Shown here one piece after another: positions 4,494 to 55,707 of a stretch of 64,000 nucleotides of DNA. Location: NCBI GenBank assembly GCA_965242485.1, contig CBDESM010000003.1, forward strand, positions 1,549,362 to 1,613,361. Direction: 5' to 3'. Positions within the stretch are counted from its first letter, which is position 1, and every line of letters starts with the position of its first letter. Source of the DNA: Dehalococcoidia bacterium (GTDB lineage Bacteria; Chloroflexota; Dehalococcoidia; Bin125). Both the position numbers and the translations under genes were made by a program. The notes below the pieces were generated by a model. The model was not told the DNA's origin, did not search any database, and saw nothing but the letters and a program-made list of their open reading frames with translations.

Positions 4494-6245
4494 TCAACGG
4501 ATGGCGGACTCGCCGGAGACGGCGCGGACGATGTCGAAGTAGGAAACGACGATGATGAAGATGATGAAGGCGGCGAGGCCGGCGAGGTGGACGAGGCCCT
4601 CGCGTTCGGGCGAGATGCGCTTCCCGCGGCGGAGGATTTCGATGAAGATGAAGAAGATGCGTCCGCCGTCGAGCATGGGCAGGGGGAGGATGTTGATGAT
4701 GGCGAGGTTGAGGGAGAGCAGGGCGGCGAGCTCGATCAGGCGGGCCCAGCCGGCGCGCTCGATGACTTCGCCGGTGACGCGGGCGATGCCGATGGGGCCG
4801 GAGAAGTCGAGGCCGGGGCCGCCGGCGATCCAGGAGCGGATGCGGTTGCGGACGATCAGGACGGTGTCGACGATCTGGCCGCCGGAGCGGGCGATGGAGT
4901 CGAAGAAGCCGTAGCCGACGCGGCTGGTGCCGGTGAGGTCGTTGCGGACGCCGATGCCGGTCGCGCCCTGGGGGATTTCGATTTCGGTGCCGGGCGGGGG
5001 ATGGCGCGGATCGATGCCGAGGGAGCGGTAGAGGGCGGAAGTGCGGATCCAGGGCTTGGCGGCGATCGCGCCGATGGTGTCGCCGTCTTCCACGACGTAG
5101 GAATCGCCGCCGGGCAGGTCGATCACGCGGCCCTCTTCGAGTTCTTCAGATTCGACGCCCCAAGCGCCGAGGACCTGGCCGGCGGTGACTCCGAGCAGAT
5201 CGGCGATCTCGGTGACGGATTCGCCCTCCCGGACGACGTGCCGGAGTTCGGAGGGGGCGAGGCGGAGGTGGACGGGCGCCTCGAAGGTTTCGGCGATGCG
5301 GACGTCGGCGGGGACGGAGGCGAGGGAGCCCGCGCCGTCTGACGCGGGGCGCTCGACGGTGAAGACGACGTTTTCGCCGAGGTTGGTCTGGGTTTCGCGG
5401 AGCAGGTCGGTGGTGTTGCGGATCGGCGTTCCGTCGAAGGCGACGATGCGGTCGCCGGGCTCGATGCCGGCGCGGTCGGCGGGCGCGCCGCTGATGACGG
5501 AGGTGACGATGACGGGCCCGTTGGGGACGTCGTCGGGGATGAGGTTGCCGATGGTGAAGAGGAAGACGGGCAGGACGGCGTTGACGGCCGCGCCGGCGGC
5601 GAGGATGACGATGCGGGTGGCGCGCGATTTGGAGCCGAGCGAGTGGGGGTCGGCGCCGGTGGTGATGCCGATGACGCTCTCGAAGCGTTCGAGGGCGGCG
5701 TCGGTGTCGGCCTGATCGCCCGATTCTTCGGCGCTGCGGAATTGGGCGACGATCGAGGGGGCGGCGGCGAACTCGGGGGCTTGGCCCGATTCGCGGTACA
5801 GGTCGCGGCGGGTGAAGCTCCAGTTCTTGATCGTGCCGTCGTCCTCGGTGCGGCTGTAGCTGATCATCGCTTCGCCGGAGGCGAGGGCCTCGGAGTACAT
5901 GCGGGCGAACTGGAGGCGGTCGTAGACGCGCTTGCCGCCGACGTGGCTGATGCGGTCGCCGGCGCGGAGGTATTCGGGGTCGATCAGATCGCGGTCGACG
6001 CCGTGGACGAGGATGCCCGAGGATTCCTCGCCGGTGAGGCGGACGAAGCCGCCGATGGGGAGCCAGTTGATCGAGTAGAGGGTGCCGCGGAAGACGCGGC
6101 CGGTGATGCGGGGGGGGAGGCCGACGCCGAACTCCTCGACGCGGACCTTGGCGAGCTTGGCGGTGACGAAGTGGCCGAGCTCGTGCAGGATGACGAGGAC
6201 GAGGAGGATGGCGATGAAGGCGAGGACGTAGGCGACGGTATCCAT
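4494..6245 (-). CDS. rseP: RseP/Rip-type site-2 zinc metalloprotease (M50) with PDZ domain and inserted LysM pair
   Basis: HELGHF zinc motif, C-terminal NILPLPMLDGG motif, PDZ segment, two LysM-like segments; start MDTVAY overlaps the dxr stop (ATGA). Confidence 0.85.
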   Translation of the reverse strand: MDTVAYVLAFIAILLVLVILHELGHFVTAKLAKVRVEEFGVGLPPRITGRVFRGTLYSINWLPIGGFVRLTGEESSGILVHGVDRDLIDPEYLRAGDRISHVGGKRVYDRLQFARMYSEALASGEAMISYSRTEDDGTIKNWSFTRRDLYRESGQAPEFAAAPSIVAQFRSAEESGDQADTDAALERFESVIGITTGADPHSLGSKSRATRIVILAAGAAVNAVLPVFLFTIGNLIPDDVPNGPVIVTSVISGAPADRAGIEPGDRIVAFDGTPIRNTTDLLRETQTNLGENVVFTVERPASDGAGSLASVPADVRIAETFEAPVHLRLAPSELRHVVREGESVTEIADLLGVTAGQVLGAWGVESEELEEGRVIDLPGGDSYVVEDGDTIGAIAAKPWIRTSALYRSLGIDPRHPPPGTEIEIPQGATGIGVRNDLTGTSRVGYGFFDSIARSGGQIVDTVLIVRNRIRSWIAGGPGLDFSGPIGIARVTGEVIERAGWARLIELAALLSLNLAIINILPLPMLDGGRIFFIFIEILRRGKRISPEREGLVHLAGLAAFIIFIIVVSYFDIVRAVSGESAIR

Positions 6246-7413
6246 CAGGGCGGTTCGATTCCGGCGATGCGCTGTTCCGTGAAGCGGCGGGCGGCGGCGT
6301 CGGCGCCGTCGATCTGTTCGAGGTCGAGCTCGTCGCCGGGCTGGTGCCGTTCGAGGGCGGCTTCGACGAGGCCGGGGATATCGGTATAGCGGATGCGGCG
6401 TTCGAGGAAGGCCCGGACGGCGATCTCGTCGGCTGCGGCCATGGCGGCGGGACAGGTGCCGCCTTGGCGTCCGGCCGCGATGGCGAGGCGGAGGCAAGGG
6501 TAGCGGTCGAGATCGGGGCGGGCGAAGTCGAGCGTGCCGACGGCGGCGAGGTCGAGCGGGTCGGCGGTGGGCCGGAGGCGTTCGGGGTAGCTGAGCGCGA
6601 GCTGGATCGGGAGCCGCATGTCGGGGTAGCCGAGCTGGGCCTTGACCGAGCCGTCGGAAAATTCGACGAGGGAGTGGACGATGGATTGGGAGTGTTGGAC
6701 CACTTCGACGGCGTCATAGGGGACGTCGAAGAGCCAGCGGGCTTCGATGGTTTCCATGCCCTTGTTCATGAGGGTGGCGGAGTCGACCGTGATCTTGTCG
6801 CCCATGTCCCAAGTCGGGTGGGCGAGCGCCTGCTCGGGGGTGACGTCGCGCAGCTGATCGGCCGGGAGGCGGCGGAGCGCGCCGCCGGAGGCGGTGAGGA
6901 TGATGCGGCGGACGTGGCGGGGCTGCTCGCCGAAGAGGCACTGCCAGACGGCGGAGTGTTCGGAGTCGACGGGGCGGAGCTGGCCGCCACCCTCGTCGGC
7001 GGCGCGGCGGACGAGGGCGCCGGCCATGACGACGACTTCCTTGTTGGCGAGGGCGACGGCGCCGCCGCGGCGGAGGGCGGCGAGCGTGGGTTCGAGGCCG
7101 GCGCGGCCGGCGGTGCCGACGACGAGCACGTCGCAGGCCGGATCGGCGGCCATTTCGTCCATCGAAGCGACCGATGCGCCGGCCTCGCGGGCGATGGCGT
7201 CGAGGCGGTCGCGCGGCTGATCGCCGCCGGTGTCGGCGCAGATGAAGGCGGGGCGGAACTCGCGGGCTTGTTCGCGGAGGCGGTCGAGGTTGCGGCCGGC
7301 GGCGAGGGCGCGGATCGTGAAGCGGTCGGGCATCGCGCGGACGACGTCGAGCGTTTGGCGGCCGATGCTGCCGGTGGAGCCGAGCACGGCGAGTTGGGCG
7401 GGTGCTTGAGTCA
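6245..7413 (-). CDS. dxr: 1-deoxy-D-xylulose 5-phosphate reductoisomerase
   Basis: LAVLGSTGSIG N-terminus and Dxr-like sequence; GTG start overlaps the cdsA stop (GTGA). Confidence 0.9.
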
Positions 7414-12681: not shown

Positions 12682-13533
12682 TCAGAAAGCGAGATCGAGC
12701 GCGATGTCGAGGGCGGGGGCGGAGTGGGTGAGCGCGCCGAGGGAGATGTAGTCGACGCCGGCGGCCGAGATCGCTTCGATGTCGGCGAGGGCGATGCCGC
12801 CGCTGGCTTCCGTGGTCGCGCCAGCGCGGGCCGCGAGCGCCGCGGCGGCGGGGAGGTCGGCGAGCGCGAAGTTGTCGAGCAGGAGCGAGCGCGCTCCCGC
12901 CGCCAGCGCTTCCTCGGCTTCCGCCGCGGAGGTGACTTCAACCTCGACTGCCGTGGCGGGGCCGACGTTCTGCAAGGCGGTGCGGACGGCGTCGCCGAGG
13001 CTGCCGCCGGCGGCGCGGACGGCGGTGATGTGGTTGTCCTTGATCAGGACGCCGGCGGCGAGGTTGTCGCGGTGGTTGAGGCCGCCGCCGCAGCGGACGG
13101 CATAGCGCTCGGCCGCGCGCAGTCCGGGCGTCGTCTTGCGGGTGTCGAGGATGCGGGCGCGGCCGCCGCGCCGGGCCGCGGCGACGGCGGCAGCGGTCAG
13201 CGTGGCCGTGCCGGAGAGGCGCTGGAGGAAGTTCAGCGCGACCCGCTCGCCGGCGAGGATGCCGGCGGCGGAGCCTTCGATGCGGGCGATTCGGCGGCCG
13301 GCGGCGACCTGCTCGCCGTCTGCGGCATCCGCCGCGAATTCCGCGCCGATGGCGGTGATCTCGAAGGCGGCGCTGGCGAAGCCGATGCCGCAGATGACGC
13401 CGTCGGCGCGGGCGATGATCTCGCCGGCCGCGTCGCGCATCCAATCGGCGAGCGACATCGTCGTGACGTCGAGGCCGGCGCGGTCCTCGGCAAGCGCGGC
13501 TGCGGCGAGCGCGCGGATGGCGGCGCGATCCAT
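12682..13533 (-). CDS. nadC: Nicotinate-nucleotide pyrophosphorylase (quinolinate PRTase)
   Basis: QPRTase-like sequence; start at MDRAAIR, 5 bp after the nadB stop. Confidence 0.85.
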   Translation of the reverse strand: MDRAAIRALAAAALAEDRAGLDVTTMSLADWMRDAAGEIIARADGVICGIGFASAAFEITAIGAEFAADAADGEQVAAGRRIARIEGSAAGILAGERVALNFLQRLSGTATLTAAAVAAARRGGRARILDTRKTTPGLRAAERYAVRCGGGLNHRDNLAAGVLIKDNHITAVRAAGGSLGDAVRTALQNVGPATAVEVEVTSAAEAEEALAAGARSLLLDNFALADLPAAAALAARAGATTEASGGIALADIEAISAAGVDYISLGALTHSAPALDIALDLAF

Positions 13534-25983: not shown

Positions 25984-27060
25984 CTAGCCGAAGTGGTCGG
26001 GCAGGCCGTACTCGGCGAAGAGGCCGCGGAAGTATTCGATCACGTCCGGGTGGTAGGGGATGCCCAGCTCGCGGCGCTCGATCTCCTGCTCGTGTTCTTC
26101 GAGGCCGGCGTAGAGGACGCGCTCCTGGCCCGGCGCAGGCGGGGTTTCGCGCAGCGCCTTGAGGTACGCGTCCATCCCCGCCTTGAACTCGTCCACGTCC
26201 GTGAACGCGGCCACGTTCATCACCGTGAAGTGGTGGCCGACGCCGTTGTTCCGCTGGACAGCGGAGCCGGCGGCGGAGAGGATGCCGGCGAGGATGTCGA
26301 TCGAGGCGGCCAGCGAGTAGCCCTTGTGGGAGCCGATCTCGCGGGTGCCGCCCAAGGGCAGGATCAGGAACTCGTCCGGCGTCTGGGCGGGTTCCATGAT
26401 CGGCGTGCCCTCGGCGTCGGCGACCCAGCCGGGCAGCAGCGCTTCGCCGAGCCGCTGCGCCAGCCGCACCTTGTTGCCGGCGACCGACGACATCGAGGCG
26501 TCGAAGATGAACGGGGCCTCTGCGCCGGCCGGGGCCGCGATCGAGAGCGGGTTGAGGCCGACCATCGCCTTGGAGCCGAAGGTGGGCGCGACGAGCAGGC
26601 CGCCCACGGTCATCGAGATGCCGATCATGTCGTGTTCCAGCGCCATCTGCGCGTGGAACGCGGCCGCGCCGTAGTGCCGCCCGTTGTTGGCCACGACGGT
26701 CGCGACGCCCGCGTGCCGCGCCTTCTCGATCGCGATCTCCATCGCCTGCGGGCCGATCGTCAGGCCGAGCCCGCGGTCGCAGTCGACCGTGGCCGCGGCC
26801 GGGTGATCGCGCTCGATCTTCATCACCGGCGCCGGGTTGATGTCGCCCGATTTCAGCCCGTCGACGTAGAACCGCATCATGTTCGAGATGCCGTGCGAGT
26901 CGATCCCGCGGATGTCGGCGTAGAACAGCGTCTCGGCCGAGCGTGCCGCGTCGGCTTCGGGCATCCCCAGGGCGCGGAAGATGTCTTGGATCGCGGCGCG
27001 CACGTTCGCCGCCGGCATGCGCACGGCGATCTCGTCGGGGACTTTGAACTGCTTGAGCAT
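25984..27060 (-). CDS. Ldh_2 family malate/L-lactate/sulfolactate dehydrogenase
   Basis: Type-2 malate/lactate dehydrogenase family sequence (HKGYSLA motif region). Confidence 0.75.
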   Translation of the reverse strand: MLKQFKVPDEIAVRMPAANVRAAIQDIFRALGMPEADAARSAETLFYADIRGIDSHGISNMMRFYVDGLKSGDINPAPVMKIERDHPAAATVDCDRGLGLTIGPQAMEIAIEKARHAGVATVVANNGRHYGAAAFHAQMALEHDMIGISMTVGGLLVAPTFGSKAMVGLNPLSIAAPAGAEAPFIFDASMSSVAGNKVRLAQRLGEALLPGWVADAEGTPIMEPAQTPDEFLILPLGGTREIGSHKGYSLAASIDILAGILSAAGSAVQRNNGVGHHFTVMNVAAFTDVDEFKAGMDAYLKALRETPPAPGQERVLYAGLEEHEQEIERRELGIPYHPDVIEYFRGLFAEYGLPDHFG

Positions 27061-27542: not shown

Positions 27543-27699
27543 GCGCCGTCGCGCCGCGATCCGACGCGGCCGCGGCAGTCGCCGCCGCGGATCGCGCGTA
27601 CCACCGCCCCCGCTTAGGATGCTAAGCGGCGGCGCGCCGGGCTTCGGCGCACCGCTTCAGCGCGGCCCCGCAGCGGGCCGAATCGCAGAGGAGGCGGCG

Positions 27700-28128
27700 A
27701 TGGCCGATGAGAAGACGGAAGCCGGCTACAGCCTGCCGATCCCGGAGCCGGATCCGGTCTCGCAACCATTCTGGGACGCGGCCAAAGAGGGCCGCCTGGC
27801 GCTGCCGCGCTGCACCGACTGCAACCGCGTGCACTGGTACCCCCGCGTCATCTGCCCCTTCTGCCACTCCGACGATATTGAGTGGATCGAGGGCTCCGGC
27901 AAGGGCACGATCCACACCTTCGCCGTCCAGACCCGCAAGTGGGGCCCTTGGGATCCTCCCTACGTCACCGCCTACATCGACCTCGCCGAGGGCGACCGCA
28001 TGGTGACGGTGCTGCGCGGCGTCGACGCCGAAGACCCCGAGTCGATCAAGATCGGCGCGCCCGTCGAGATCGAGTTCGAACCCGCCAGCGACGACGTCCA
28101 CATCCCCTTCTGGCGGGTCGTCGGCTGA
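27700..28128 (+). CDS. DUF35-type Zn-ribbon plus OB-fold protein (thiolase partner)
   Basis: CTDCNRVHWYPRVICPFC zinc ribbon followed by an OB fold; precedes an SCP-x-type thiolase. Confidence 0.75.
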   Translation: MADEKTEAGYSLPIPEPDPVSQPFWDAAKEGRLALPRCTDCNRVHWYPRVICPFCHSDDIEWIEGSGKGTIHTFAVQTRKWGPWDPPYVTAYIDLAEGDRMVTVLRGVDAEDPESIKIGAPVEIEFEPASDDVHIPFWRVVG

Positions 28129-28168
28129 GGCCGGCGCGAGCCCCGAACGCACGAACAGGAGCACCCCG

Positions 28169-29425
28169 ATGCCAGGTCCCGCATCCAACGCAGCCGCCAT
28201 CGTCGGAGCCGCCGAAGCCGACGAGATCGGCTACCCGGCGACGCCCAAGTCCTCGCTCACCCTCCACATGGAGGCGATCCGCAACGTCTGCGCCCAGACC
28301 GGCATCCCGATCCGGGCCATCGACGGCATCTTCTCGGCCGGCTGGTCGTCGCAGATCGCCGAGTACCTCGGGCTGCATCCGAAGTACATCGACACCACCG
28401 CCGTCGGCGGCTGCTCGTTCGAGATGCACGTCCACCACGCGCTGGCCGCGATCCACGCCGGGATCGTCGACGTCGCCCTCGTCTCGCACGGCGAGATGGG
28501 CTTCAACGCGCGCAACACCCGCGGCCGCGGCACCGGCCGCCCCTTCGGCGGCGGCGACCCGTGGGACCCCGCGACCCAGCACTCCGTCGCCTACGGCATG
28601 GGCGGCGCGCCCACGGCCTATTCGCACGCGCTCAACCGCCACATGCACCGCTACGGCACGACCCAGGAGGACTTCGCCGAGATCGCCGTCGTCACCCGCG
28701 AATGGGCCGGGCTCAACCCCAAGGCGATCATGTACAAAAAGGCCGCCAAGGAGGACCTGCCCGAGGGCAGCATGGGCGGCGGCAAGATGGGCCACCCCTT
28801 CGGCGGCCCGATCACCGTCGACGACGTGATGAACTCCCGCGTCATCTCCTGGCCCCTCAAGCTGCTCGACGTCTGCCTCGTCACCGACCACGGCGGCGCC
28901 GTCCTGATCGTCGGCAAGGAATTCGCCCACTCGACCAAGAACAAGCCCGTCTGGATCACCGGCGCGGGCGAGAACATGTCGCACTCGAACATCATGGAGA
29001 TGAGCGACTTCACCGCCACCTCCGCCTCCGCCTCCGCCGCCACCGCCTACAAGATGGCCGGGATGGGCCCCGAAGACATGGAAATGGCCATGATCTACGA
29101 CTCGTTCACGGTCACCGCCGGGATCACGGCCGAGATGCTCGGCCTCGCCCCGCGCGGCGAGGGCTTCCGGCTCTGGAAGGACCGCCACGCCGCGCCCGGC
29201 GGCCGCCTGCCGATCAACACCAACGGCGGCGGCCTCTCCTTCAACCACTCCGGCATGTACGGCATGCAGCTGCTGGTCGAGGCTTACCGCCAGCTCTCCG
29301 GCACGGCCGAGGACGGCGGCGTCACCGGCGACCTCGGCAAGCAGACCGACGCCCGCTCCTGCGTCGTCAACGGCACCGGCGGCTCGCTCTCGACCACCGG
29401 CACGCTGGTGCTCACCGCCGACTAG
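28169..29425 (+). CDS. Thiolase-like protein, SCP-x / lipid-transfer protein type
   Basis: Thiolase fold with conserved Cys region and GGGLSFNHSGMYG C-terminal motif. Confidence 0.8.
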   Translation: MPGPASNAAAIVGAAEADEIGYPATPKSSLTLHMEAIRNVCAQTGIPIRAIDGIFSAGWSSQIAEYLGLHPKYIDTTAVGGCSFEMHVHHALAAIHAGIVDVALVSHGEMGFNARNTRGRGTGRPFGGGDPWDPATQHSVAYGMGGAPTAYSHALNRHMHRYGTTQEDFAEIAVVTREWAGLNPKAIMYKKAAKEDLPEGSMGGGKMGHPFGGPITVDDVMNSRVISWPLKLLDVCLVTDHGGAVLIVGKEFAHSTKNKPVWITGAGENMSHSNIMEMSDFTATSASASAATAYKMAGMGPEDMEMAMIYDSFTVTAGITAEMLGLAPRGEGFRLWKDRHAAPGGRLPINTNGGGLSFNHSGMYGMQLLVEAYRQLSGTAEDGGVTGDLGKQTDARSCVVNGTGGSLSTTGTLVLTAD

Positions 29426-29473
29426 AGTGGGCGGCGCGGGCGGGCCGATGCCCGCCGGAACGGGTGCATCGAC

Positions 29474-29899
29474 ATGGCTGAAGCGGGATCCGCCAGCAGC
29501 AGGTTCGACAAGGTCTGGTACTGGCTGTGGCTGCTCGGCTTGGGCGGCGGCGTCGTCGTCTACGGGCTCACGGCCGGCGGCGTGTTCAGCGACGGCGACC
29601 TCCCGGTCTCCGAGGTCGGCGTCATCGCCGCCGGCGCCGTCAACGCCATCGGCGTCATCGCCGTTGCCCCGATCAACGCGATCGGCATCGTCGCCATCGG
29701 CGGGGTCAACTCGATCGCCGTCGTCTCGATCGGCACCATCAACAGCGTCGGCGTGATCGCGATCGGCGGCTGGAACACCGCCGGCCTGGTCTCCCTGGGC
29801 GGCGCGTTCAACAGCTACGGCGTGATGATGGCGACCGTCAACGCCCGCACCGGCGGCCCGCTCGTCACCATGCACGACGTCAAGGTGCTCCGCAAGTAG
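29474..29899 (+). CDS. Small hydrophobic protein built from 11-residue repeats (xN[AS]IGVIAIGG)
   Basis: About 8 hendecad repeats after an N-terminal hydrophobic helix; paralog immediately downstream. Confidence 0.5.
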   Translation: MAEAGSASSRFDKVWYWLWLLGLGGGVVVYGLTAGGVFSDGDLPVSEVGVIAAGAVNAIGVIAVAPINAIGIVAIGGVNSIAVVSIGTINSVGVIAIGGWNTAGLVSLGGAFNSYGVMMATVNARTGGPLVTMHDVKVLRK

Positions 29900-29950
29900 C
29901 CCCGCCGCCGCGCTGCACGCATCCCGCTTGGCATCCCGGAGGAGTGATCC

Positions 29951-30418
29951 ATGTCCGAACCTGCAAATCAGGGCAACGCGGCTCACCGCGCGGCCGAAGG
30001 CTGGACCGACGTCTGGGTGATGCTGCTCGGCGGCGGTATCGTGATCTGGGCGCTGGCGCACGCCGGCATCCTCGGCGATATCGAACTGGATTCCGAAGTC
30101 GGCTGGTTCGCGATGGCGTCGCTCAACGCGATCGGCCTCGTCGCGGTTTCGCCGCTGAACGCGATCGGGCTGATCGCGATCGGCGGCGTCAACTCGATCG
30201 GCGTGATCACCATCGGCACGGTCAACAGCATCGGCTTCATCGCCGTCGGCGGCGTCAACGCGCTGGGCGTGATCTCGTTCGGCGGCGCGTTCGGCAGCTA
30301 CGCGCTGCTGATCGCCACGGGCGACTTGGTCTCGCGGGACGGCAAGACCTGGGGCCGCCAGGCCGCGCCCGTCGCCTGCAACCCGCTCGGCCGCCGGCTC
30401 CTGCACTTGGACGATTAG
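29951..30418 (+). CDS. Paralog of the 11-residue-repeat protein
   Basis: Same repeat architecture (LNAIGLVAVSP/LNAIGLIAIGG/VNSIGVITIGT ...). Confidence 0.5.
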   Translation: MSEPANQGNAAHRAAEGWTDVWVMLLGGGIVIWALAHAGILGDIELDSEVGWFAMASLNAIGLVAVSPLNAIGLIAIGGVNSIGVITIGTVNSIGFIAVGGVNALGVISFGGAFGSYALLIATGDLVSRDGKTWGRQAAPVACNPLGRRLLHLDD

Positions 30419-30435
30419 CGATCTGGTAGCCTCGC

Positions 30436-30530
30436 GCCACGAGTTGATGCCGGGGTGGTCCGCTTGAGGCGGGCCTGAGAGCACACCCGCTGAACCTGAT
30501 CCGGGTAATGCCGGCGCAGGGAGCGTTCCA
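30436..30530 (+). promoter_or_regulatory. TPP (THI-box) riboswitch
   Basis: GGGGUG ... CUGAGA ... ACCC ... GAACCUGAUCCGGGUAAUGCCGGCGCAGGGA matches the THI-element consensus directly upstream of thiD. Confidence 0.75.
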
Positions 30531-30544
30531 GGTCCGCCCGCAGC

Positions 30545-31402
30545 TTGTCCGAACCGGCGCGAAAGCGTCAGCGCGTGCGCGTCATCTGCAGCATCGCCGG
30601 TTCCGATTCCTGCGCCGGCGCCGGCATCCAAGCCGACATCAAGGCCGCCGCCGCCTTCCTCGGCTGCCACGCCGCCACCGTGATCACCGCGATCACCGCC
30701 CAGAACACGCTCGGCGTCCAAAGCGCGCACCAGCTGCCCACCTCCGTCGTGCGGGCCCAGATCGCCTCCGTCTTCGACGACCTCGACGTGGCCGTGGTCA
30801 AGACCGGCATGCTCGGCGACTCCGAGATGATCGAAACGGTCGCCGACGAGCTCTCGGCGCGGCCGAGGCGCTGGACCGTCGTCGACCCGGTGATGATCTC
30901 CAAGACCGGCTTCGCGCTCTTGGCGGACGACGCGGTCGCCACGTTCACCAGCCTGATGCTGCCACTGGCCGACCTGCTCACGCCCAACACGCACGAGGCC
31001 GAACGGCTCACCGGCATCGCCGTGCGCACGCTCGACGACGCTAAGCGCGCCGGCCAAGCGCTGCTCGAACTCGGCGCCAAGGCCGTGCTCGTCAAGGGCG
31101 GGCATCTCGAGGAAGCGCCCGGCACCGACACGCTCGTCACCGCCGAGGGCTTCCAGATCTTCGAAGGCCGCTGGATCGAAACCAAGCACACGCACGGCAC
31201 CGGCTGCACCTACGCCTCCGCCATCGCCGCCCGCCTCGCCCATTCCTTCAACATCGACGACGCGGACCCGAGCGGCGCGATCGAGGACGCGAAGCTCTGG
31301 CTCGACGCCGGCGTGATCCAGTACGGCCTGCCGATCGGCCATGGCGTCGGCCCGACCAATCCCTTCTACGACCGCGAGTGGTACGGATGGAACGGCGGAT
31401 GA
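30545..31402 (+). CDS. thiD: Hydroxymethylpyrimidine/phosphomethylpyrimidine kinase
   Basis: PfkB-family ThiD-like sequence (VKTGML, GTGCT). Confidence 0.85.
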   Translation: MSEPARKRQRVRVICSIAGSDSCAGAGIQADIKAAAAFLGCHAATVITAITAQNTLGVQSAHQLPTSVVRAQIASVFDDLDVAVVKTGMLGDSEMIETVADELSARPRRWTVVDPVMISKTGFALLADDAVATFTSLMLPLADLLTPNTHEAERLTGIAVRTLDDAKRAGQALLELGAKAVLVKGGHLEEAPGTDTLVTAEGFQIFEGRWIETKHTHGTGCTYASAIAARLAHSFNIDDADPSGAIEDAKLWLDAGVIQYGLPIGHGVGPTNPFYDREWYGWNGG

Positions 31403-32055
31403 CGGGCGCGCCGCGGATCGGCCGCCTGCACGTGATCACCGACGAGGTCCTGCAAGACCGCTTCAGCCACGCGGAGCTGGCCCGTTTCGCCGCAGAGGGC
31501 GGCGCGGACGTCATCCAGTACCGCGAGAAGCGCCCGCTGGCCACGCGTGAGCTGGTCGAGGCCGCCGCCGCCGTCCGCGACGCGATCAACGGCAGCGGGG
31601 CCGGCCTGATCGTCAACGACCGCGTCGACGTCGCCGCGGCCGCCGGTGCGGACGTGCATCTCGGCCGCGATGACCTCGCCCCCGCCGCCGCCCGCCGCCT
31701 GCTCGGGCCCGGAGCGGTGATCGGCGGCACGGCCAACAGCATCGAGGAAGCGCGCCGCGTCGCGGCCGGGCCGGTCGATTACATCGGCGTCGGCCCCGTC
31801 TACGGCACTGCATCGAAGGGCGACCGCGCGGCGCCGAAGCTGGGGCTGGAGCGCCTGGCCGAGATCGCCGCGGCGGTGGACAAGCCCGTGATCGCGATCG
31901 GCGGCATCCAAGCCTCGAACGCGGCCGAGGTCATGGCGGCGGGCGCGCACGGCATCGCGGTCCTCTCCGCCGTGGTCTGCCGGGCCGATCCGCGCGCGGC
32001 GGCGGCCGAGTTCCGCGCCGCGCTCGATGCTGCGCTGGCGGAGCCGGGGCCATGA
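31398..32055 (+). CDS. thiE: Thiamine-phosphate synthase
   Basis: TMP-TENI family; start overlaps the thiD stop (ATGA). Confidence 0.8.
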
Positions 32056-33215
32056 TCCATACGTTCGAAGCCTTGGTCGTCGGCGCGGGCGCGATCGGCC
32101 TCTCGGTCGCGTTCGAGCTGATCCGCCGCGGCCACGACGTGCAGGTGATCGACACCCGCCGCGGCTGGGACGTCCGCGCCAGCAACGTCGCGGCTGGCAT
32201 GCTCGGTCCCGCCTCCGAAGCCGAGATCGCGGAACCGGCCGCGCTCGAACTGCAGCTCGACAGCCTGCGGCGCTATCCCGAATTCATCGCCGCCCTCGAA
32301 TCCGCGTCGGGCGAGCCCTCCGGCTACCGAGCCGAAGGCACGCTGTGGCCCGCGCGGCACCGCGACGACGAGCTGCAGTTGGAACACCTCCATCAAGTCC
32401 AACGGGATCGCGGCCTGGAAGCCGAGTGGCTGACCGCAGCGCAGGCGCGGGCGCTGGAACCGGCGCTCGCCCCGCGCGTGATCGGCGGCCTCTTCGTAGC
32501 CGGCGACCACCAAGTCGACCCGCGCCGCTTCACCAACGCGCTCCAGCGCGCAGTCACCAACCACCGGAGCTGGCTGCATTGGGAAACCCGGATTCGGCGC
32601 TATGAGGAAATCGCGGACGGGTTCCACGTCTGGTACGGCGGCGCGAGCGGCATGAACTTCCGCGCGCGCCACATCGTCATCGCCACCGGCCCTTGGAACG
32701 ACCAGCTCAAGCAGCCGCCGCTGCCGCCGATCGGGATGCGCCCCGTCAAGGGGCAGCTGCTGCGCCTGCGCGGCGAACCGCTTGCCGACCGCGTCCTCCG
32801 CACGCCGGACGTCTACATCGTCCCGCGCGCCGACGGCGAGCTGATCATCGGCGCGACCGAGGAAGAACAGGGCTGGGACGACCGCCCGATGGCCGGCGGG
32901 GTGCTCGACCAGCTGCGCTACGCCTGGGAGGTGCTGCCGGGCATCTACGACCTCGAACTCCGCGAGATCAGCGTCGGTTTCCGCCCCGCCGTCGGCGATC
33001 ACATGCCCGTGATCGGCCGCGCCGATGATCATGAGCGGATCATCTACGCGACCGGCCACTACCGGCACGGCATCCTGCTCGCGCCGGCCACCGCTTGGCA
33101 CGTCGCCAACCTGATCGAAGGGCGGGACGCGCCCGATGTGCTGCGCCCGTTCGCGCCGCGGCGGCTGACCGCCCCCATCGCCTCGCCCCTTCCCCGCAAG
33201 GAGGCCGTCAGATGA
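32052..33215 (+). CDS. thiO: Glycine oxidase
   Basis: FAD-binding GAGAIG N-terminus and DAO-family sequence, within the thiamine cluster. Confidence 0.8.
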   Translation: MIHTFEALVVGAGAIGLSVAFELIRRGHDVQVIDTRRGWDVRASNVAAGMLGPASEAEIAEPAALELQLDSLRRYPEFIAALESASGEPSGYRAEGTLWPARHRDDELQLEHLHQVQRDRGLEAEWLTAAQARALEPALAPRVIGGLFVAGDHQVDPRRFTNALQRAVTNHRSWLHWETRIRRYEEIADGFHVWYGGASGMNFRARHIVIATGPWNDQLKQPPLPPIGMRPVKGQLLRLRGEPLADRVLRTPDVYIVPRADGELIIGATEEEQGWDDRPMAGGVLDQLRYAWEVLPGIYDLELREISVGFRPAVGDHMPVIGRADDHERIIYATGHYRHGILLAPATAWHVANLIEGRDAPDVLRPFAPRRLTAPIASPLPRKEAVR

Positions 33216-41846: not shown

Positions 41847-42183
41847 GTTGGTGGCCCGGGGCAGAGTCGAGCTGCCGGCGCCGCGCCTCCGGCAATGGCA
41901 GCCAGTGCCTGCTCGCATCGCAAGCGGAAAGGTTGGTGGCCCGGGGCAGGGTCGAACTGCCGGCACCACGCCTCCGGCAATGGCAGTCAGTCGTGTGCTG
42001 GTGGCGCAAGTGGGAAAGGTTGGTGGCCCGGGGCAGAGTCGAACTGCCGGCACCACGCCTTCGGCAATGGCAGTCAGTCGTGTGCTGGTGGCGCAAGTGG
42101 GAAAGGTTGGTGGCCCGGGGCAGAGTCGAGCTGCCGGTGCCGCGCCTTCGGCAATGGCAGTCAGTCGTGTGCTGGTGGCGCAA
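41847..42183 (-). repeat. Four tandem ~87-bp repeats, each containing a degenerate tRNA-Phe 3' portion (T-arm plus acceptor plus CCA)
   Basis: Unit starts at about 41847, 41921, 42008, 42095; each carries GGCAGTTCGACTCTGCCCCGGGCCACCA on the minus strand. Confidence 0.6.
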
Positions 42184-42259
42184 GTGGAAAGGTTGGTGGC
42201 CAGGGGCAGAGTCGAACTGCCGACACCACGATTTTCAGTCGTGTGCTCTACCAACTGAG
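42184..42259 (-). tRNA. tRNA-Phe (anticodon GAA)
   Basis: Cloverleaf; anticodon loop CTGAAAA; T-loop GTTCGACTC; CCA encoded. Confidence 0.85.
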
Positions 42260-42307
42260 CTACCTGGCCGCGGGCACCAATCATACAGTGCAGCGGGAGG
42301 CCGAGTG

Positions 42308-42625
42308 ATGCCGCCGGACGTTGACGAGCTGGATTGGAGTGCCGACATTCCGTCGAAGCTCGGACGACACGGCTTGACGACCGACGATGCGCAGGACGTG
42401 TTCAGAATCCGTCCGCTGCTCGCGTGGCAGAAGGAGGAATGGCAGTTGGGAGACGATGGACTGCTCCGTCTGAGGCCTCGACGCGTCAGGATGATCGGCC
42501 CTGACTACTCGGGGCGCTTCCTGACGTTTATCCTTGAAGCACCGGACGATCGTCGCGTGTCACAGATCGTCTCGGGCTGGCCGGCTACGCGGCGCGACAT
42601 CGCCCGCTACCGCCGAGCCAGATGA
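42308..42625 (+). CDS. brnT: BrnT-like (DUF497) toxin of a type II toxin-antitoxin module
   Basis: GRHGLTTDDAQDVF and GRFLTFILEAPDDRRVSQIVSGWPATRRDIARY resemble the BrnT family; toxin-first gene order. Confidence 0.55.
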   Translation: MPPDVDELDWSADIPSKLGRHGLTTDDAQDVFRIRPLLAWQKEEWQLGDDGLLRLRPRRVRMIGPDYSGRFLTFILEAPDDRRVSQIVSGWPATRRDIARYRRAR

Positions 42626-42641
42626 TCCGCGCGACTGCACA

Positions 42642-42929
42642 ATGACCGACTACGACGACTGCATCTGCCCGAATGACAGCAGGGACCACCTCCCCCACTG
42701 CGCCTTCGCCGATGAGGACCAATGGGAAGAGGGCGAGATCATCGAAGGCAAGACCGTGAGGATGCATGTGCGCGCCGTTTTCGAAGGCGACGAGTACCGC
42801 GCTTTCTCGGCGATGATGCGCGCGAACGGCGAGTGGCATCCCAACCGCTATCTCAAAGACTTGGCGATGCGCGCCATCGAGGAATGGCAGGCAGTGCCGC
42901 AGCACTCTGCCGTCGCGGAGGGCGACTGA
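42642..42929 (+). CDS. BrnA-like ribbon-helix-helix antitoxin paralog 1 with Cys/His-rich acidic N-terminal extension
   Basis: DDCICPNDSRDHLPHC N-terminal segment, C-terminal RHH (KTVRMHVRAVFEGDEYRAFSAMMRANGEWHPNRYLKDLAMRAIEEW). Confidence 0.5.
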   Translation: MTDYDDCICPNDSRDHLPHCAFADEDQWEEGEIIEGKTVRMHVRAVFEGDEYRAFSAMMRANGEWHPNRYLKDLAMRAIEEWQAVPQHSAVAEGD

Positions 42930-42935
42930 CCGGGC

Positions 42936-43232
42936 ATGCCTGCTACCGCTGATCCGGGCTGTCGTCTAGACGACTGCATTTGCCCGGCAGACAGACGGGA
43001 TCACCGGCCCGATTGCCCGTATTCCGATATCGGGCTCTGGGACGACGAAGAAGATGGCGTTGGCATGATCGTACGGGTCCCGTTCGAGCAGCAGCAGTAC
43101 GGCGCGCTCCGCGCGATGATGCGCGCGCATGGCGAGGACAACCCCAACCGTTTCGTTCGAGACATGATGCTCCGCGCTATCGAGGAATGGCAGGCGGTGC
43201 CGCCGCACTCCGCCGTCGCGGAGGGCGACTGA
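42936..43232 (+). CDS. BrnA-like antitoxin paralog 2 (diverged copy)
   Basis: DDCICPADRRDHRPDC ... MIVRVPFEQQQYGALRAMMRAHGEDNPNRFVRDMMLRAIEEW. Confidence 0.5.
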   Translation: MPATADPGCRLDDCICPADRRDHRPDCPYSDIGLWDDEEDGVGMIVRVPFEQQQYGALRAMMRAHGEDNPNRFVRDMMLRAIEEWQAVPPHSAVAEGD

Positions 43233-43238
43233 CCGGGC

Positions 43239-43547
43239 ATGGCCTCCGCTGTTGATCTGGAAGATCGCCTAGACGACTGCATCTGCCCGAATGACAGCAG
43301 GGACCACCTCCCCCACTGCGCCTTCGCCGATGAGGACCAATGGGAAGAGGGCGAGATCATCGAAGGCAAGACCGTGAGGATGCATGTGCGCGCCGTTTTC
43401 GAAGGCGACGAGTACCGTGCTTTCTCGGCGATGATGCGCGCGAACGGCGAGTGGCATCCCAACCGCTATCTCAAGGACTTGGCGATGCGCGCCGTCGAGG
43501 AGTGGCAGGCGGTGCCGCCACATTCCGCTGTTGCGGAGACTGATTAG
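43239..43547 (+). CDS. BrnA-like antitoxin paralog 3 (near-identical to paralog 1)
   Basis: Near-identical DNA to 42650-42930. Confidence 0.5.
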   Translation: MASAVDLEDRLDDCICPNDSRDHLPHCAFADEDQWEEGEIIEGKTVRMHVRAVFEGDEYRAFSAMMRANGEWHPNRYLKDLAMRAVEEWQAVPPHSAVAETD

Positions 43548-43554
43548 CGGGGGC

Positions 43555-44250
43555 TCAGGGCTCGCGCATGCTGGCTACTACGGGGGCGGCCTTGGCGCGG
43601 ACTTGGTCGAAGACCTCTTCGACCGAGCCGCGGGCGTCGACTACGTCGAAGCCGTAGCGGTCCGACATTTCGCGGAACTCGGCGATCATCTTGCCCTGGT
43701 GTTGCACGAACGCGTCGTGGATCGACGCCCCCTGCAGGTAGTCGCCGCCCGACTCCCAGTAGTCGAACCCGCGCTCCAGCACCCGCAGCACGAGCTGATC
43801 GACGTCGATGTCGAGGTAGATCACCTGGTCCGGCACCAGCGCGAACGAGTAGACGTCTTCCAGCCAGGCCCGCGGCGCACCGCGCACCGTCGCGCGCGCG
43901 ATCAGCGAGAAGATGTAGCGGTCGACCAGCGCAACCATGCCCGCGCGCAGCGCCGGCAGCACGATCCTCTCGAAGCGGTCCCAGAAATCGGTCGCGTAGA
44001 ACAAATTCAGCGTGATCGGGTCCAGCGTGTGCCCGCGCTTGGCCCGCTCGATCCCCGGCCCGACCAGCGGCGAGCGCCGCAGGCCGCTGTCGACGACGCC
44101 GAACCCTTCCGCCTCGAGCCATTCCTTCAGCAGCGAGATCGCGGTCGAGCGGCCCACTCCGTCGGTGCCCTCGATCACGATCATCCGGCCCGGCAGGTCG
44201 GCCGTGCCGACGCCCGGCGGCGGGTCGCCGTAGAAGCGCAGGTCGGTCAT
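43555..44250 (-). CDS. Thymidylate kinase-like P-loop kinase (paralog 2)
   Basis: P-loop IEGTDGVGRST and DRY lid motif; tandem with a paralog. Confidence 0.55.
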   Translation of the reverse strand: MTDLRFYGDPPPGVGTADLPGRMIVIEGTDGVGRSTAISLLKEWLEAEGFGVVDSGLRRSPLVGPGIERAKRGHTLDPITLNLFYATDFWDRFERIVLPALRAGMVALVDRYIFSLIARATVRGAPRAWLEDVYSFALVPDQVIYLDIDVDQLVLRVLERGFDYWESGGDYLQGASIHDAFVQHQGKMIAEFREMSDRYGFDVVDARGSVEEVFDQVRAKAAPVVASMREP

Positions 44251-55034: not shown

Positions 55035-55111
55035 TGGCGCGCCCGGCAGGACTTGAACCTGCGGCCTCTGCCTCCGCAGGGCAGCGCTCTAATCCGCTGA
55101 GCTACGGGCGC
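55035..55111 (-). tRNA. tRNA-Arg (anticodon reads GCG)
   Basis: Cloverleaf; anticodon loop CTGCGGA; T-loop GGTTCAAGTCC. Confidence 0.7.
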
Positions 55112-55153
55112 GGGTCGCGTCGCGGCCGCGGGGGCCGCGCTGCGGGTGATGGA

Positions 55154-55240
<87 letters not shown>

Positions 55241-55319
55241 ACGCGGCTCGGCGCGCCATGCGCGCCGCTGCTCCTCGCTTTCGGCGGCGCCCCGCCGGGC
55301 GTCCGCAACGTTGGGCGGC

Positions 55320-55397
55320 TGGTGGGCGATGCAGGACTTGAACCTGCGGCCTCTCGGATGTGAACCGAACGCTCTAGCCAGCTGAGCTAATCGCCCC
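55320..55397 (-). tRNA. tRNA-Val (anticodon CAC)
   Basis: Anticodon loop TTCACAT; T-loop GGTTCAAGTCC. Confidence 0.8.
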
Positions 55398-55432
55398 CTT
55401 GGTTCGGCAACGCCGCCCGGCGCTTCGCGGCG

Positions 55433-55508
55433 GTGGTAGCAGCGGCAGGACTCGAACCTGCGACACGGGGCTTATGAGTCCCCTGCTCTGCCAACTGAGC
55501 TACGCTGC
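55433..55508 (-). tRNA. tRNA-Met (anticodon CAT)
   Basis: Anticodon loop CTCATAA; T-loop GGTTCGAGTCC; G1.U72 wobble. Confidence 0.7.
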
Positions 55509-55707
55509 CGCGCCTCACGGCCGGCGGGCCCGCGCGGCGGCGCCCGCCTCCCGCAACGCTATCCGCATCGCCCCCGCTCGTCAAAGCGCTCCGCCGGACC
55601 CCGCCGGCGGGCGCGCAGCGCGGCCGTTCGCCTACGATCAGGTGCAGACAGGCAGAAGCGGCCCGCACCCGGCGCCGCGCCGGCCCGCGCAGGGGAGCGC
55701 GCGAACG

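Follow-up and report, generated by a model that had tools for sequence, protein, structure and literature searches.

The curli subunits CsgA and CsgB consist of short, imperfect tandem repeats in which Asn and Gly are conserved at fixed positions and one strand per half-repeat stacks on the next. Here we describe a pair of adjacent genes, called A and B below, whose products share much of this plan, with short imperfect repeats, fixed Asn and Gly, a predicted stacking of strands and a likely tendency to self-associate. The genes lie in a 64,000-nucleotide stretch of the genome of a Dehalococcoidia bacterium (GenBank assembly GCA_965242485.1, contig CBDESM010000003.1, positions 1,549,362 to 1,613,361 of the forward strand), which we call the window, and belong to a family that is rare and unannotated. 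By analogy, this family appears to work most like short-repeat beta-solenoids such as curli. However, the curli unit has 19-23 residues, whereas that of A and B has 11 (or 22); the curli surface is rich in Gln, Asn and Ser, whereas theirs is aliphatic and uncharged; and curli subunits have a cleaved Sec signal peptide, whereas the N-terminus in the present family is a long acidic region with a membrane helix (as in A and B) or, in one group of relatives (type 2, below), lacks a signal sequence altogether. The Curlin repeat profile (Sx5QxGxGNxAx3Q) was not matched in Pfam by A or B (E <=10) or by nine relatives (E <=1; these thresholds apply to all Pfam results below). Nor are secretion and nucleator genes of the csg type (csgB, csgEFG) present near the family genes, where the neighbors are thiolase/ChsH2 genes, thi genes, CoA-transferases, acyl-CoA dehydrogenases, short-chain dehydrogenases/reductases (SDRs) and components of ATP-binding cassette (ABC) systems.

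Left-handed beta-helices and ice-binding proteins (GlmU, LpxD, gamma-carbonic anhydrase, CfAFP and FfIBP) are the only folds retrieved by Foldseek, and only insignificantly. Like A and B, they have Gly at their turns and an aliphatic core, but their period is 6/18 or 15 rather than 11 and, unlike A and B, they are soluble proteins with a polar exterior. The hexapeptide signature [LIV]-G-x4 leaves no period peak at 6 or 18 in A or B, there is no Hexapep match in Pfam, and superposition of the A and B models on a solved left-handed beta-helix is not significant (template modeling score [TM-score], 0.13-0.19). Glycine-zipper proteins (Gly-zipper_Omp/YMGG/OmpA and Rick_17kDa_Anti) resemble A and B in being small, Gly-rich, hydrophobic and probably oligomeric in membranes. 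In the zipper motif GxxxGxxxG, however, Gly recurs at i+4, whereas the glycines of the A/B repeat fall at i, i+5, i+6 and i+11, together with an invariant Asn and predicted strands, and neither A, B nor their relatives match the Gly-zipper families of Pfam.

Three further comparisons come from membrane and surface proteins. The local pattern N-S-[IV]-G-x-x-A-I-G in A and B resembles the NSVAIG head-repeat signature of YadA-like proteins, which form a parallel beta-roll. Trimeric autotransporters (Hep_Hag) nevertheless have a 14-residue unit, a stalk and a beta-barrel anchor, whereas A and B have an 11-residue unit and neither stalk nor anchor. The family proteins are just 100-200 amino acids (aa) long, come from mostly monoderm carriers and end 20-45 residues after the repeats; A, B and their relatives match no Hep_Hag or YadA family of Pfam. 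Proteusin precursors, like A and B, are rich in Val, Ile, Gly and Asn and come from sponge symbionts, and the polytheonamide-type product forms a membrane-spanning beta-helix. Those precursors have a leader domain and maturation genes, while A and B have neither and instead show a conserved sequence at a syntenic housekeeping location. The F-type ATPase c subunit and other Gly-rich helical hairpins share the Gly, Ala, Val, Ile and Leu composition, the small size and an oligomeric packing in the membrane, but A and B have no polar loop and no carboxylate, carry an 11-residue repeat with predicted strands, and have no sequence relationship to them.

Two functional classes were set aside on database results. 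A phage holin or other small phage membrane protein was rejected, as there are zero relatives in 2.9 million viral contigs and no PHROG family match (best E 0.037, to a family of unknown function). An antiphage defense component was rejected because seven family members gave no match to PADLOC models at E <=1. Compared with curli, hexapeptide helices, glycine zippers, trimeric autotransporters, proteusins, holins and defense classes, the family departs from each at every testable criterion, and the description that suits it best is that of an unannotated family, a hydrophobic variant of the tandem-repeat beta proteins that is associated with the membrane.

Two genes built on an 11-residue repeat

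Gene A (29474-29899, + strand; positions are those of the window) encodes 141 aa, and gene B (29951-30418, +) encodes 155 aa; both are supported by the open reading frame (ORF) list, by GC content at third codon positions (GC3) and by orthologues. The two proteins are ∼50% identical and share one layout: the N-terminus is short and polar, a hydrophobic helix and an acidic linker (GDLPVSEV in A, GDIELDSEV in B) come next, and the repeat block is followed by a short Arg/Lys-rich tail, which in B has diverged into a basic/acidic sequence. Gly, Ala, Val, Ile, Leu, Ser and Asn together make up 71-74% of each protein, and Asp, Glu, Lys and Arg are absent from residues 48-124 of A and 50-124 of B.

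The periodicity was measured for each protein as BLOSUM62 self-match by offset against 500 composition shuffles. Offset 11 is the top peak in both A and B (z = 6.2 in each), with harmonics that decay through offset 22 (z ∼5) and offset 33 (z ∼4-5), and no other offset in either protein has z >3.6. Tandem Repeats Finder reports the corresponding 33-bp period in both genes with 70-72% matches; in gene B, the arrays lie at 30099-30202 and 30158-30287. Because the DNA period is matched to just this degree, the repeats must be old and maintained at the protein level. In A, eight units follow one another without an indel from residue 45 to 132 (29606-29869, +), comprising one degenerate unit, five canonical ones (residues 56-110; 29639-29803, +) and two degenerate ones, as read from the register print-out, the periodicity, the motif scan and the AlphaFold2 strands. 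The layout of B is equivalent but offset by one residue, and its five canonical units (residues 58-112; 30122-30286, +), located by motif scan, periodicity, Tandem Repeats Finder and AlphaFold2, are flanked by degenerate ones out to roughly residues 50-122.

A logo of 343 units from 63 homologues, with the motif anchored on Asn at position 2, has the consensus [VLAWI]-N-[SA]-[IV]-G-[VLI]-[VI]-[AST]-[IFLV]-G-G, in which Gly occupies position 5 in 94%, position 10 in 84% and position 11 in 75% of units. Independently of that anchoring, N57, N68, N79 and N90 are invariant columns in the alignment of the 63 sequences. Across the family, consecutive Asn residues are spaced by 11 (429 times), 10 (59 times) or 12 (10 times), with some relatives being pure 10-mers, and differences in repeat length arise at the Gly turn alone. 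A super-period of 22 residues is absent, as z at offset 22 is lower than z at offset 11.

An initial annotation, made from the sequence without database searches, had read both proteins as an N-terminal hydrophobic helix followed by 11-residue hydrophobic repeats with Asn at position 2 and Gly at fixed positions. The formal repeat detection, the logo and the predicted helices (residues 9-34 of A and 6-37 of B) all confirm this reading, and its count of about eight repeats is fair when the degenerate units (about three) are added to the five canonical ones. It also proposed selection on the repeat structure, with which the ∼150 homologues agree, since they retain the Asn and Gly columns and the register. 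Its tandem duplication holds for the pair itself but is lineage specific, most relatives being single-copy.

A and B are real genes. The region is ∼70% GC and long spurious ORFs are abundant in the window, so that both could be thought chance ORFs over a GC-rich DNA tandem repeat. One such spurious frame, an antisense ORF of 1098 aa (28046-31342, −), covers the upstream thiolase gene, both repeat genes and the downstream thiD; it is rejected as a gene, being a no-stop artifact of 70% GC, and the GC3 signal sits in the + strand frames. GC3 is 0.97 in gene A and 0.92 in gene B (codon position 2, ∼0.49), is this high only in the called frames, and is at the level of the flanking thiolase (0.97) and thiD (0.92) genes. 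Orthologues of A are P0093 (99% identity), P0092 (91%), P0028 (80%) and copy 1 of locus L007, and those of B are P0001 (90%) and P0002 (86%); P0093, P0028, P0001 and P0002 are full length, with starts and ends identical to those of the window genes. The GC3 signal and these matching termini establish the frames. Against a chance origin stand also the ∼150 protein-level homologues with conserved ends, some of them in genomes of 58-65% GC, the retention of the protein motif over a DNA repeat so loosely matched, and the strong Shine-Dalgarno-like GGAGG (29938-29942, +) that lies 8 nt 5' of the gene B ATG. We regard the chance-ORF explanation as negligible and, judging by the homologue set, already refuted.

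Predicted fold and relation to the membrane

AlphaFold2, run on B with 23 sequences, gives an N-terminal helix (residues 6-37; 29966-30061, +) and one 9-residue strand per repeat (residues 59-67, 70-78, 81-89, 92-100 and 103-110), with a predicted local distance difference test score (pLDDT) of 74-79 in the repeats. For A, run with 63 sequences, the helix (residues 9-34; 29498-29575, +; pLDDT 75-82) is a predicted membrane anchor and is followed by eight strands (46-53, 57-65, 68-76, 79-87, 90-98, 101-109, 113-123 and 128-131) with breaks of two or three residues at the G-[VI] junction; pLDDT is 87-91 over residues 51-100, and the predicted TM-score is 0.64. Confidence in the repeats is thus higher with the deeper alignment. 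The sequence pattern itself favors strand-plus-turn modules over a continuous or 22-residue helix, because every 11-mer keeps the invariant Asn and Gly, because there is no super-period of two units, and because length varies only at the Gly turn, which a phase-locked helix would fit poorly. Foldseek found no match to either model in the PDB at E <=0.001. Its best results (E 1.3-1.9, with the TM-scores given above and a root mean square deviation of ∼10 angstroms) are insignificant and are all parallel beta-helices, namely, GlmU, LpxD, gamma-carbonic anhydrase, and insect and bacterial ice-binding proteins. A sequence-profile search of the PDB returned a single spurious hydrogenase match (E = 0.5). 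The initial annotation had offered a glycine-zipper-like membrane assembly or a beta-solenoid. The beta-solenoid-like part agrees with the predicted strands (pLDDT ∼90), and a strict GxxxG zipper does not stand; association with the membrane is plausible in view of the N-terminal transmembrane-like helix, the uncharged block and a hydropathy of up to ∼2.

Several properties bear on how the repeat block relates to the membrane. Its 19-residue Kyte-Doolittle means are ∼1.3-2.0, which may be set beside a family-wide mean of 2.1 for the best 19-residue window of the N-terminal helix (in B, <=1.77 with the center near residue 30). Both faces of the strands are aliphatic and without charge, so the repeat domain could not be a soluble monomer. 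Over the 63 proteins of the A/B architecture (type 1), the linker has K+R of 0.11 and D+E of 2.5, while the C-terminal tail has K+R of 2.9 and D+E of 0.6. By the positive-inside rule, this asymmetry would place the linker outside and the tail inside, and the repeat block should then cross the membrane. Relatives of type 2, which lack the helix and any signal peptide but have more repeats, suggest likewise that the repeats are the membrane-resident part.

We therefore favor, at a probability of roughly 0.45, the reading that A and B carry a membrane-embedded or membrane-attached, self-associating beta-repeat (solenoid-like) domain that acts as a structural part of the envelope, to the benefit of cells living inside sponges. 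What we infer here is the geometry of the solenoid, its embedding in the membrane, the oligomerization and any part in symbiosis. The hydrophobic helix would anchor the protein in the cytoplasmic membrane, and each unit would contribute one beta-strand of ∼9 residues that ends in a Gly turn. Stacked on one another, these strands would make up a compact repeat domain, most likely a flattened solenoid of two sheets in which Asn and Gly form ladders. The domain would lie in or on the membrane, where ∼30-angstrom strands would match the bilayer core. Self-association, either as homo-oligomers or of A with B, might then build a beta-sheet array, a structural component of the envelope or membrane that would be specifically useful for life inside sponges. 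A bolder version appears quite unlikely to us. It would have a transmembrane cross-beta slab, in which each 9-residue strand of a two-sheet solenoid spans the cytoplasmic membrane and open edges polymerize laterally, shared horizontally among Chloroflexota, Acidimicrobiia and Poribacteria symbionts as an envelope alteration needed to persist in the host, for example, through resistance to host membrane-active metabolites or to phagocytic digestion. If true, such a slab would be categorically new, the first natural non-barrel beta integral inner-membrane protein.

Several points weigh against the membrane-associated beta-repeat domain. We know of no non-barrel beta membrane domain in a bacterial cytoplasmic-membrane protein, which makes the prior low. 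AlphaFold2 takes no account of the membrane and can predict regular beta-stacks too readily where repeats are short, and the choice of a solenoid over an antiparallel meander would depend only on the folds that Foldseek weakly retrieves. Size complementarity, expected if consecutive repeats pack antiparallel, is not significant in an anti-palindrome test of the 11-mer (p ∼0.21, with the expected axis ranked third). The ratio of nonsynonymous to synonymous substitution (dN/dS) between gene A and its L007 orthologue is 0.55 (computed range, 0.55-0.75) and would by itself indicate moderate constraint only, although the ratio is inflated and weakly informative because dS is compressed at a GC3 of 0.97 (synonymous sites, GC3 >0.9). 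The restriction to sponge habitats described below could partly reflect the dominance of certain long-read metagenome-assembled genome (MAG) projects in the databases. Finally, stretches of 20-22 residues rich in Val, Ile, Gly and Ala are typical, too, of transmembrane helices that pack tightly.

A multipass alpha-helical membrane protein, with two 11-mers (20-22 residues) per transmembrane helix, is the alternative that deserves most attention, though we consider it doubtful. Type 1 proteins would then have 1 + 3 = 4 transmembrane helices and type 2 proteins, with eight repeats, also four; Gly, Ala and Ser would pack tightly, and buried Asn residues would zip helices or subunits into a small oligomeric ring or channel. 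In line with such a protein, 60-90 consecutive residues are free of charge and have Kyte-Doolittle values of ∼1.3-2.0, and the linker-out, tail-in asymmetry needs an odd number of crossings, which three 22-residue helices fit. Type 2 proteins would simply swap the canonical helix for two extra repeats and keep 4 x 22 residues, and 2 x 10 and 2 x 11 residues are both membrane-spanning lengths. Yet AlphaFold2 gives strands, with a confidence that rises with alignment depth to ∼90, and Asn and GG are the same in every 11-mer, with no 22-residue super-period, though turn and mid-helix positions should differ. Almost no polar loops are available between the would-be helices, and single-residue indels at GG would rotate helix halves by ∼100 degrees.

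The predicted stacked strands would also suit an extracytoplasmic functional amyloid or hydrophobic coat (curli-, chaplin- or adhesin-like), tethered by the helix, with a beta-solenoid that polymerizes outside the cell into fibers or a hydrophobic layer by which the symbiont adheres to its sponge host or is concealed from it. Curli-type solenoids likewise have short imperfect repeats in which Asn and Gly are conserved, the acidic linker after the helix is predicted to lie outside, and the habitat restriction hints at host interaction. We nonetheless judge this to be unlikely, as type 2 members have no signal peptide or anchor, the basic tails point to a C-terminus in the cytoplasm, the surface is made up of aliphatic residues and not of Gln, Asn and Ser, Pfam gives no match to a Curlin_rpt, chaplin or adhesin family, and no secretion, nucleator or sortase partner was found in any examined context. 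A ribosomally synthesized natural-product precursor of the proteusin/polytheonamide kind, with a Val/Ile/Gly/Asn-rich core epimerized into a membrane-spanning beta-helix peptide, is recommended by compositional resemblance and sponge-symbiont origin only. Pfam and NCBIfam give no NHLP or Nif11 leader match, and a transmembrane helix occupies the N-terminal leader position; no radical-SAM epimerase, methyltransferase or protease is a neighbor in nine annotated contexts or among the recurrent neighbor families of 49 loci; and the sequence has long been conserved at a syntenic core-genome position, unlike the core of such a precursor. With neither leader nor maturation genes found, this origin is effectively refuted and, in our estimate, extremely improbable.

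A rare family in sponge-associated bacteria

The family is small in every collection searched. Queried with a single sequence, 5.8 billion proteins yielded 27 relatives; exhaustive phmmer against 1.84 billion representatives found 44, and a profile search extended the family to about 130 clusters in the 5.8 billion proteins, with HMMER E values to relatives of 1e-18 to 1e-83. All relatives are unnamed or "hypothetical protein." The initial annotation had not recognized a named family, and none emerged from Pfam, NCBIfam (A, B and up to nine relatives), PADLOC, PHROG or PDB sequences; our literature search on the family, or on hydrophobic repeat proteins of sponge symbionts, found nothing relevant. 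We define members by at least four consecutive x-N-[SA]-x-G-x3-x-G-G units in an uncharged block, of which A and B have five canonical ones each.

Three architectures can be told apart. Type 1, the kind of A and B, has the helix, an acidic "GD.P.SE" linker, 5-6 repeats and a tail with the motif [WF]-x-P-x-x-x-R; most members keep this motif, but the tails of A and B have diverged and lost W-S-P. Type 2 proteins are ∼100-110 aa long and have 8-9 repeats without an N-terminal helix or signal peptide. Their extreme C-terminus is conserved as "...GG.xS[RK]SxLP[LIV]x" (loci L043-L086, for example, L055 at ∼5944-6261 and L054 at ∼5947-6258), a motif for which we found no match among known sorting signals. 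Type 3 proteins (170-200 aa) carry "TFNxExFKK" at the N-terminus, then a helix and 7-10 repeats with a period of 10 or 11, and last the conserved tail "GRYxFSPxRQDxEAVxFFTRWxPKLK." Type 3 members (P0039, P0042, P0049, P0110, P0127, P0139 and L089 at 6001-6561) include "Candidatus Poribacteria," some have a strict 10-residue repeat, and no Pfam or NCBIfam model covers them.

The carriers were surveyed by scanning a single genome from each of 185,579 species. Among the best 80 of 153 genome relatives, all are MAGs of Dehalococcoidia/Chloroflexota, Acidimicrobiia/Acidimicrobiales, "Candidatus Poriferisodalis" and "Candidatus Aldehydirespirator," apart from one unclassified bin that itself belongs to a sponge series. 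Named protein records come from "Ca. Poriferisodalis," Chloroflexota and "Ca. Poribacteria." Many of the carrier bins belong to series known from sponge-microbiome studies (RHO, IRC, COS, SB, bin125 and PNGco). Within the Acidimicrobiia, the families Poriferisodalaceae (TK06) and Aldehydirespiratoraceae (UBA11606) include lineages of sponge symbionts (PMC11706023). In 241 million metagenome records there are just 12 loci, of which 8 come from the sponge assemblies LXNI (Sarcotragus foetidus), LXNJ (Petrosia ficiformis) and MKWU (Aplysina aerophoba). The identifiable metagenome matches are sponge metagenomes, and none of the 12 loci is from the paired seawater assembly LXNH, the membership of which in the scanned collection is not confirmed. 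As far as public data show, the carriers are essentially all bacteria that live in symbiosis with marine sponges, and these bacteria represent at least three phyla.

Chloroflexota and Acidimicrobiia both have proteins of type 1 as well as of type 2. In a neighbor-joining tree without support values, the Acidimicrobiia type 1 proteins form one clade nested among those of Chloroflexota, which suggests horizontal transfer between co-resident symbionts. Most genomes have a single copy. Outside the window, the tandem pair is found only in L007 (OZ242037.1) and in a metagenomic clade (P0028/P0029/P0092-P0099), a distribution that points to gene A, the extra "A-type" paralogue, as a lineage-specific copy that predates the species of the window. 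Two contigs of one "Ca. Poriferisodalis" MAG (L025 and L037; isolate aea9684f) carry two unlinked, diverged type 1 paralogues, so multicopy states seem to arise independently of the window's tandem pair.

It is thus possible to see in A and B a candidate symbiosis-associated gene family common to sponge symbionts that are only distantly related. The eukaryotic-like repeat proteins that are usually discussed differ from it, and annotation pipelines do not see it, since they label all members "hypothetical." Its predicted all-beta repeat domain has a fully aliphatic surface and no counterpart in the PDB. Should this domain really reside in the membrane, it would call into question the rule that the inner-membrane proteins of bacteria are helical, and the design of hydrophobic beta-solenoids would gain a minimal natural template. 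Because the proteins are small (100-200 aa) and follow clear sequence rules, biophysical tests would be cheap and decisive.

Genomic context and other features of the window

In the lineage of the window, the gene order is Ldh_2, zf-ChsH2-OB protein, Thiolase_C_1 protein, repeat gene(s), thiamine pyrophosphate (TPP) riboswitch, and thiD-thiE-thiO-thiS-thiG-tenA. This order, including the succession of repeat gene, riboswitch and thi genes, is kept in ∼35 related genomes, in which ThiD is just 61-83% identical. In the window, the upstream neighbors are a divergent Ldh_2-family dehydrogenase gene (25984-27060, −) and genes for a zf-ChsH2/OB_ChsH2_C protein (27697-28128, +) and a Thiolase_C_1 (SCP-x/Ltp2-like) protein (28169-29425, +). 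Downstream, the TPP riboswitch aptamer (30441-30539, +; Rfam RF00059, 66.9 bits) starts 22 nt after gene B and is followed by thiD (30545-31402, +), thiE (31378-32055, +) and thiO (32052-33215, +). Control of A and B by this riboswitch was rejected, as the aptamer lies 3' of gene B and 5' of thiD. Scans of 29200-30700 for promoter and terminator consensus sequences gave no match. The gap that separates the thiolase stop from the start of gene A contains a perfect 7-bp GC hairpin (GGCGGGC-cgat-GCCCGCC; 29439-29456, +), which has no U-tract and folds no better than shuffled sequence (z = −0.35).

We surveyed the contexts of six annotated homologue loci in the syntenic lineage and three outside it, and clustered the ORFs of 49 non-syntenic loci. 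This survey revealed no partner gene conserved across lineages, only lineage-level synteny and common metabolic enzymes, and the biggest "neighbor family" in the 49 loci is the antisense ORF of the repeat gene itself. In "Ca. Poriferisodalis," the neighbors include a flavin mononucleotide (FMN) reductase, and the repeat gene lies 5' of genes for CoA-transferase III, acyl-CoA dehydrogenase and enoyl-CoA hydratase. One type 2 locus has SDRs as neighbors, and one type 3 locus has DUF3500 and a sugar ABC system. No radical-SAM, secretion, nucleator or sortase genes occur in the contexts examined. A link to acyl-CoA metabolism or to steroid/sterol side-chain metabolism is possibly present but weak; such genes are abundant in these genomes and lend it little weight.

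Farther along the window lies a low-GC island (59986 to ∼62600, −; GC 0.53 versus ∼0.70) that encodes a large protein in which five tandem S1 RNA-binding repeats of ∼85 aa, nearly identical to one another, are combined with a Schlafen/AlbA_2 domain at the C-terminus (Pfam S1, 4.5e-34; SLFN_AlbA_2, 5.7e-16). This island was probably acquired horizontally. Two other stretches of the window are lower in GC (positions 1-2000, 0.59; 42001-44000, 0.64). A cluster of four tRNA genes (55035-55509, −) comprises Arg-GCG, Leu-CAG, Val-CAC and Met-CAT, and five dispersed tRNAs are found at 13008, 18434, 42194, 45132 and 57503.

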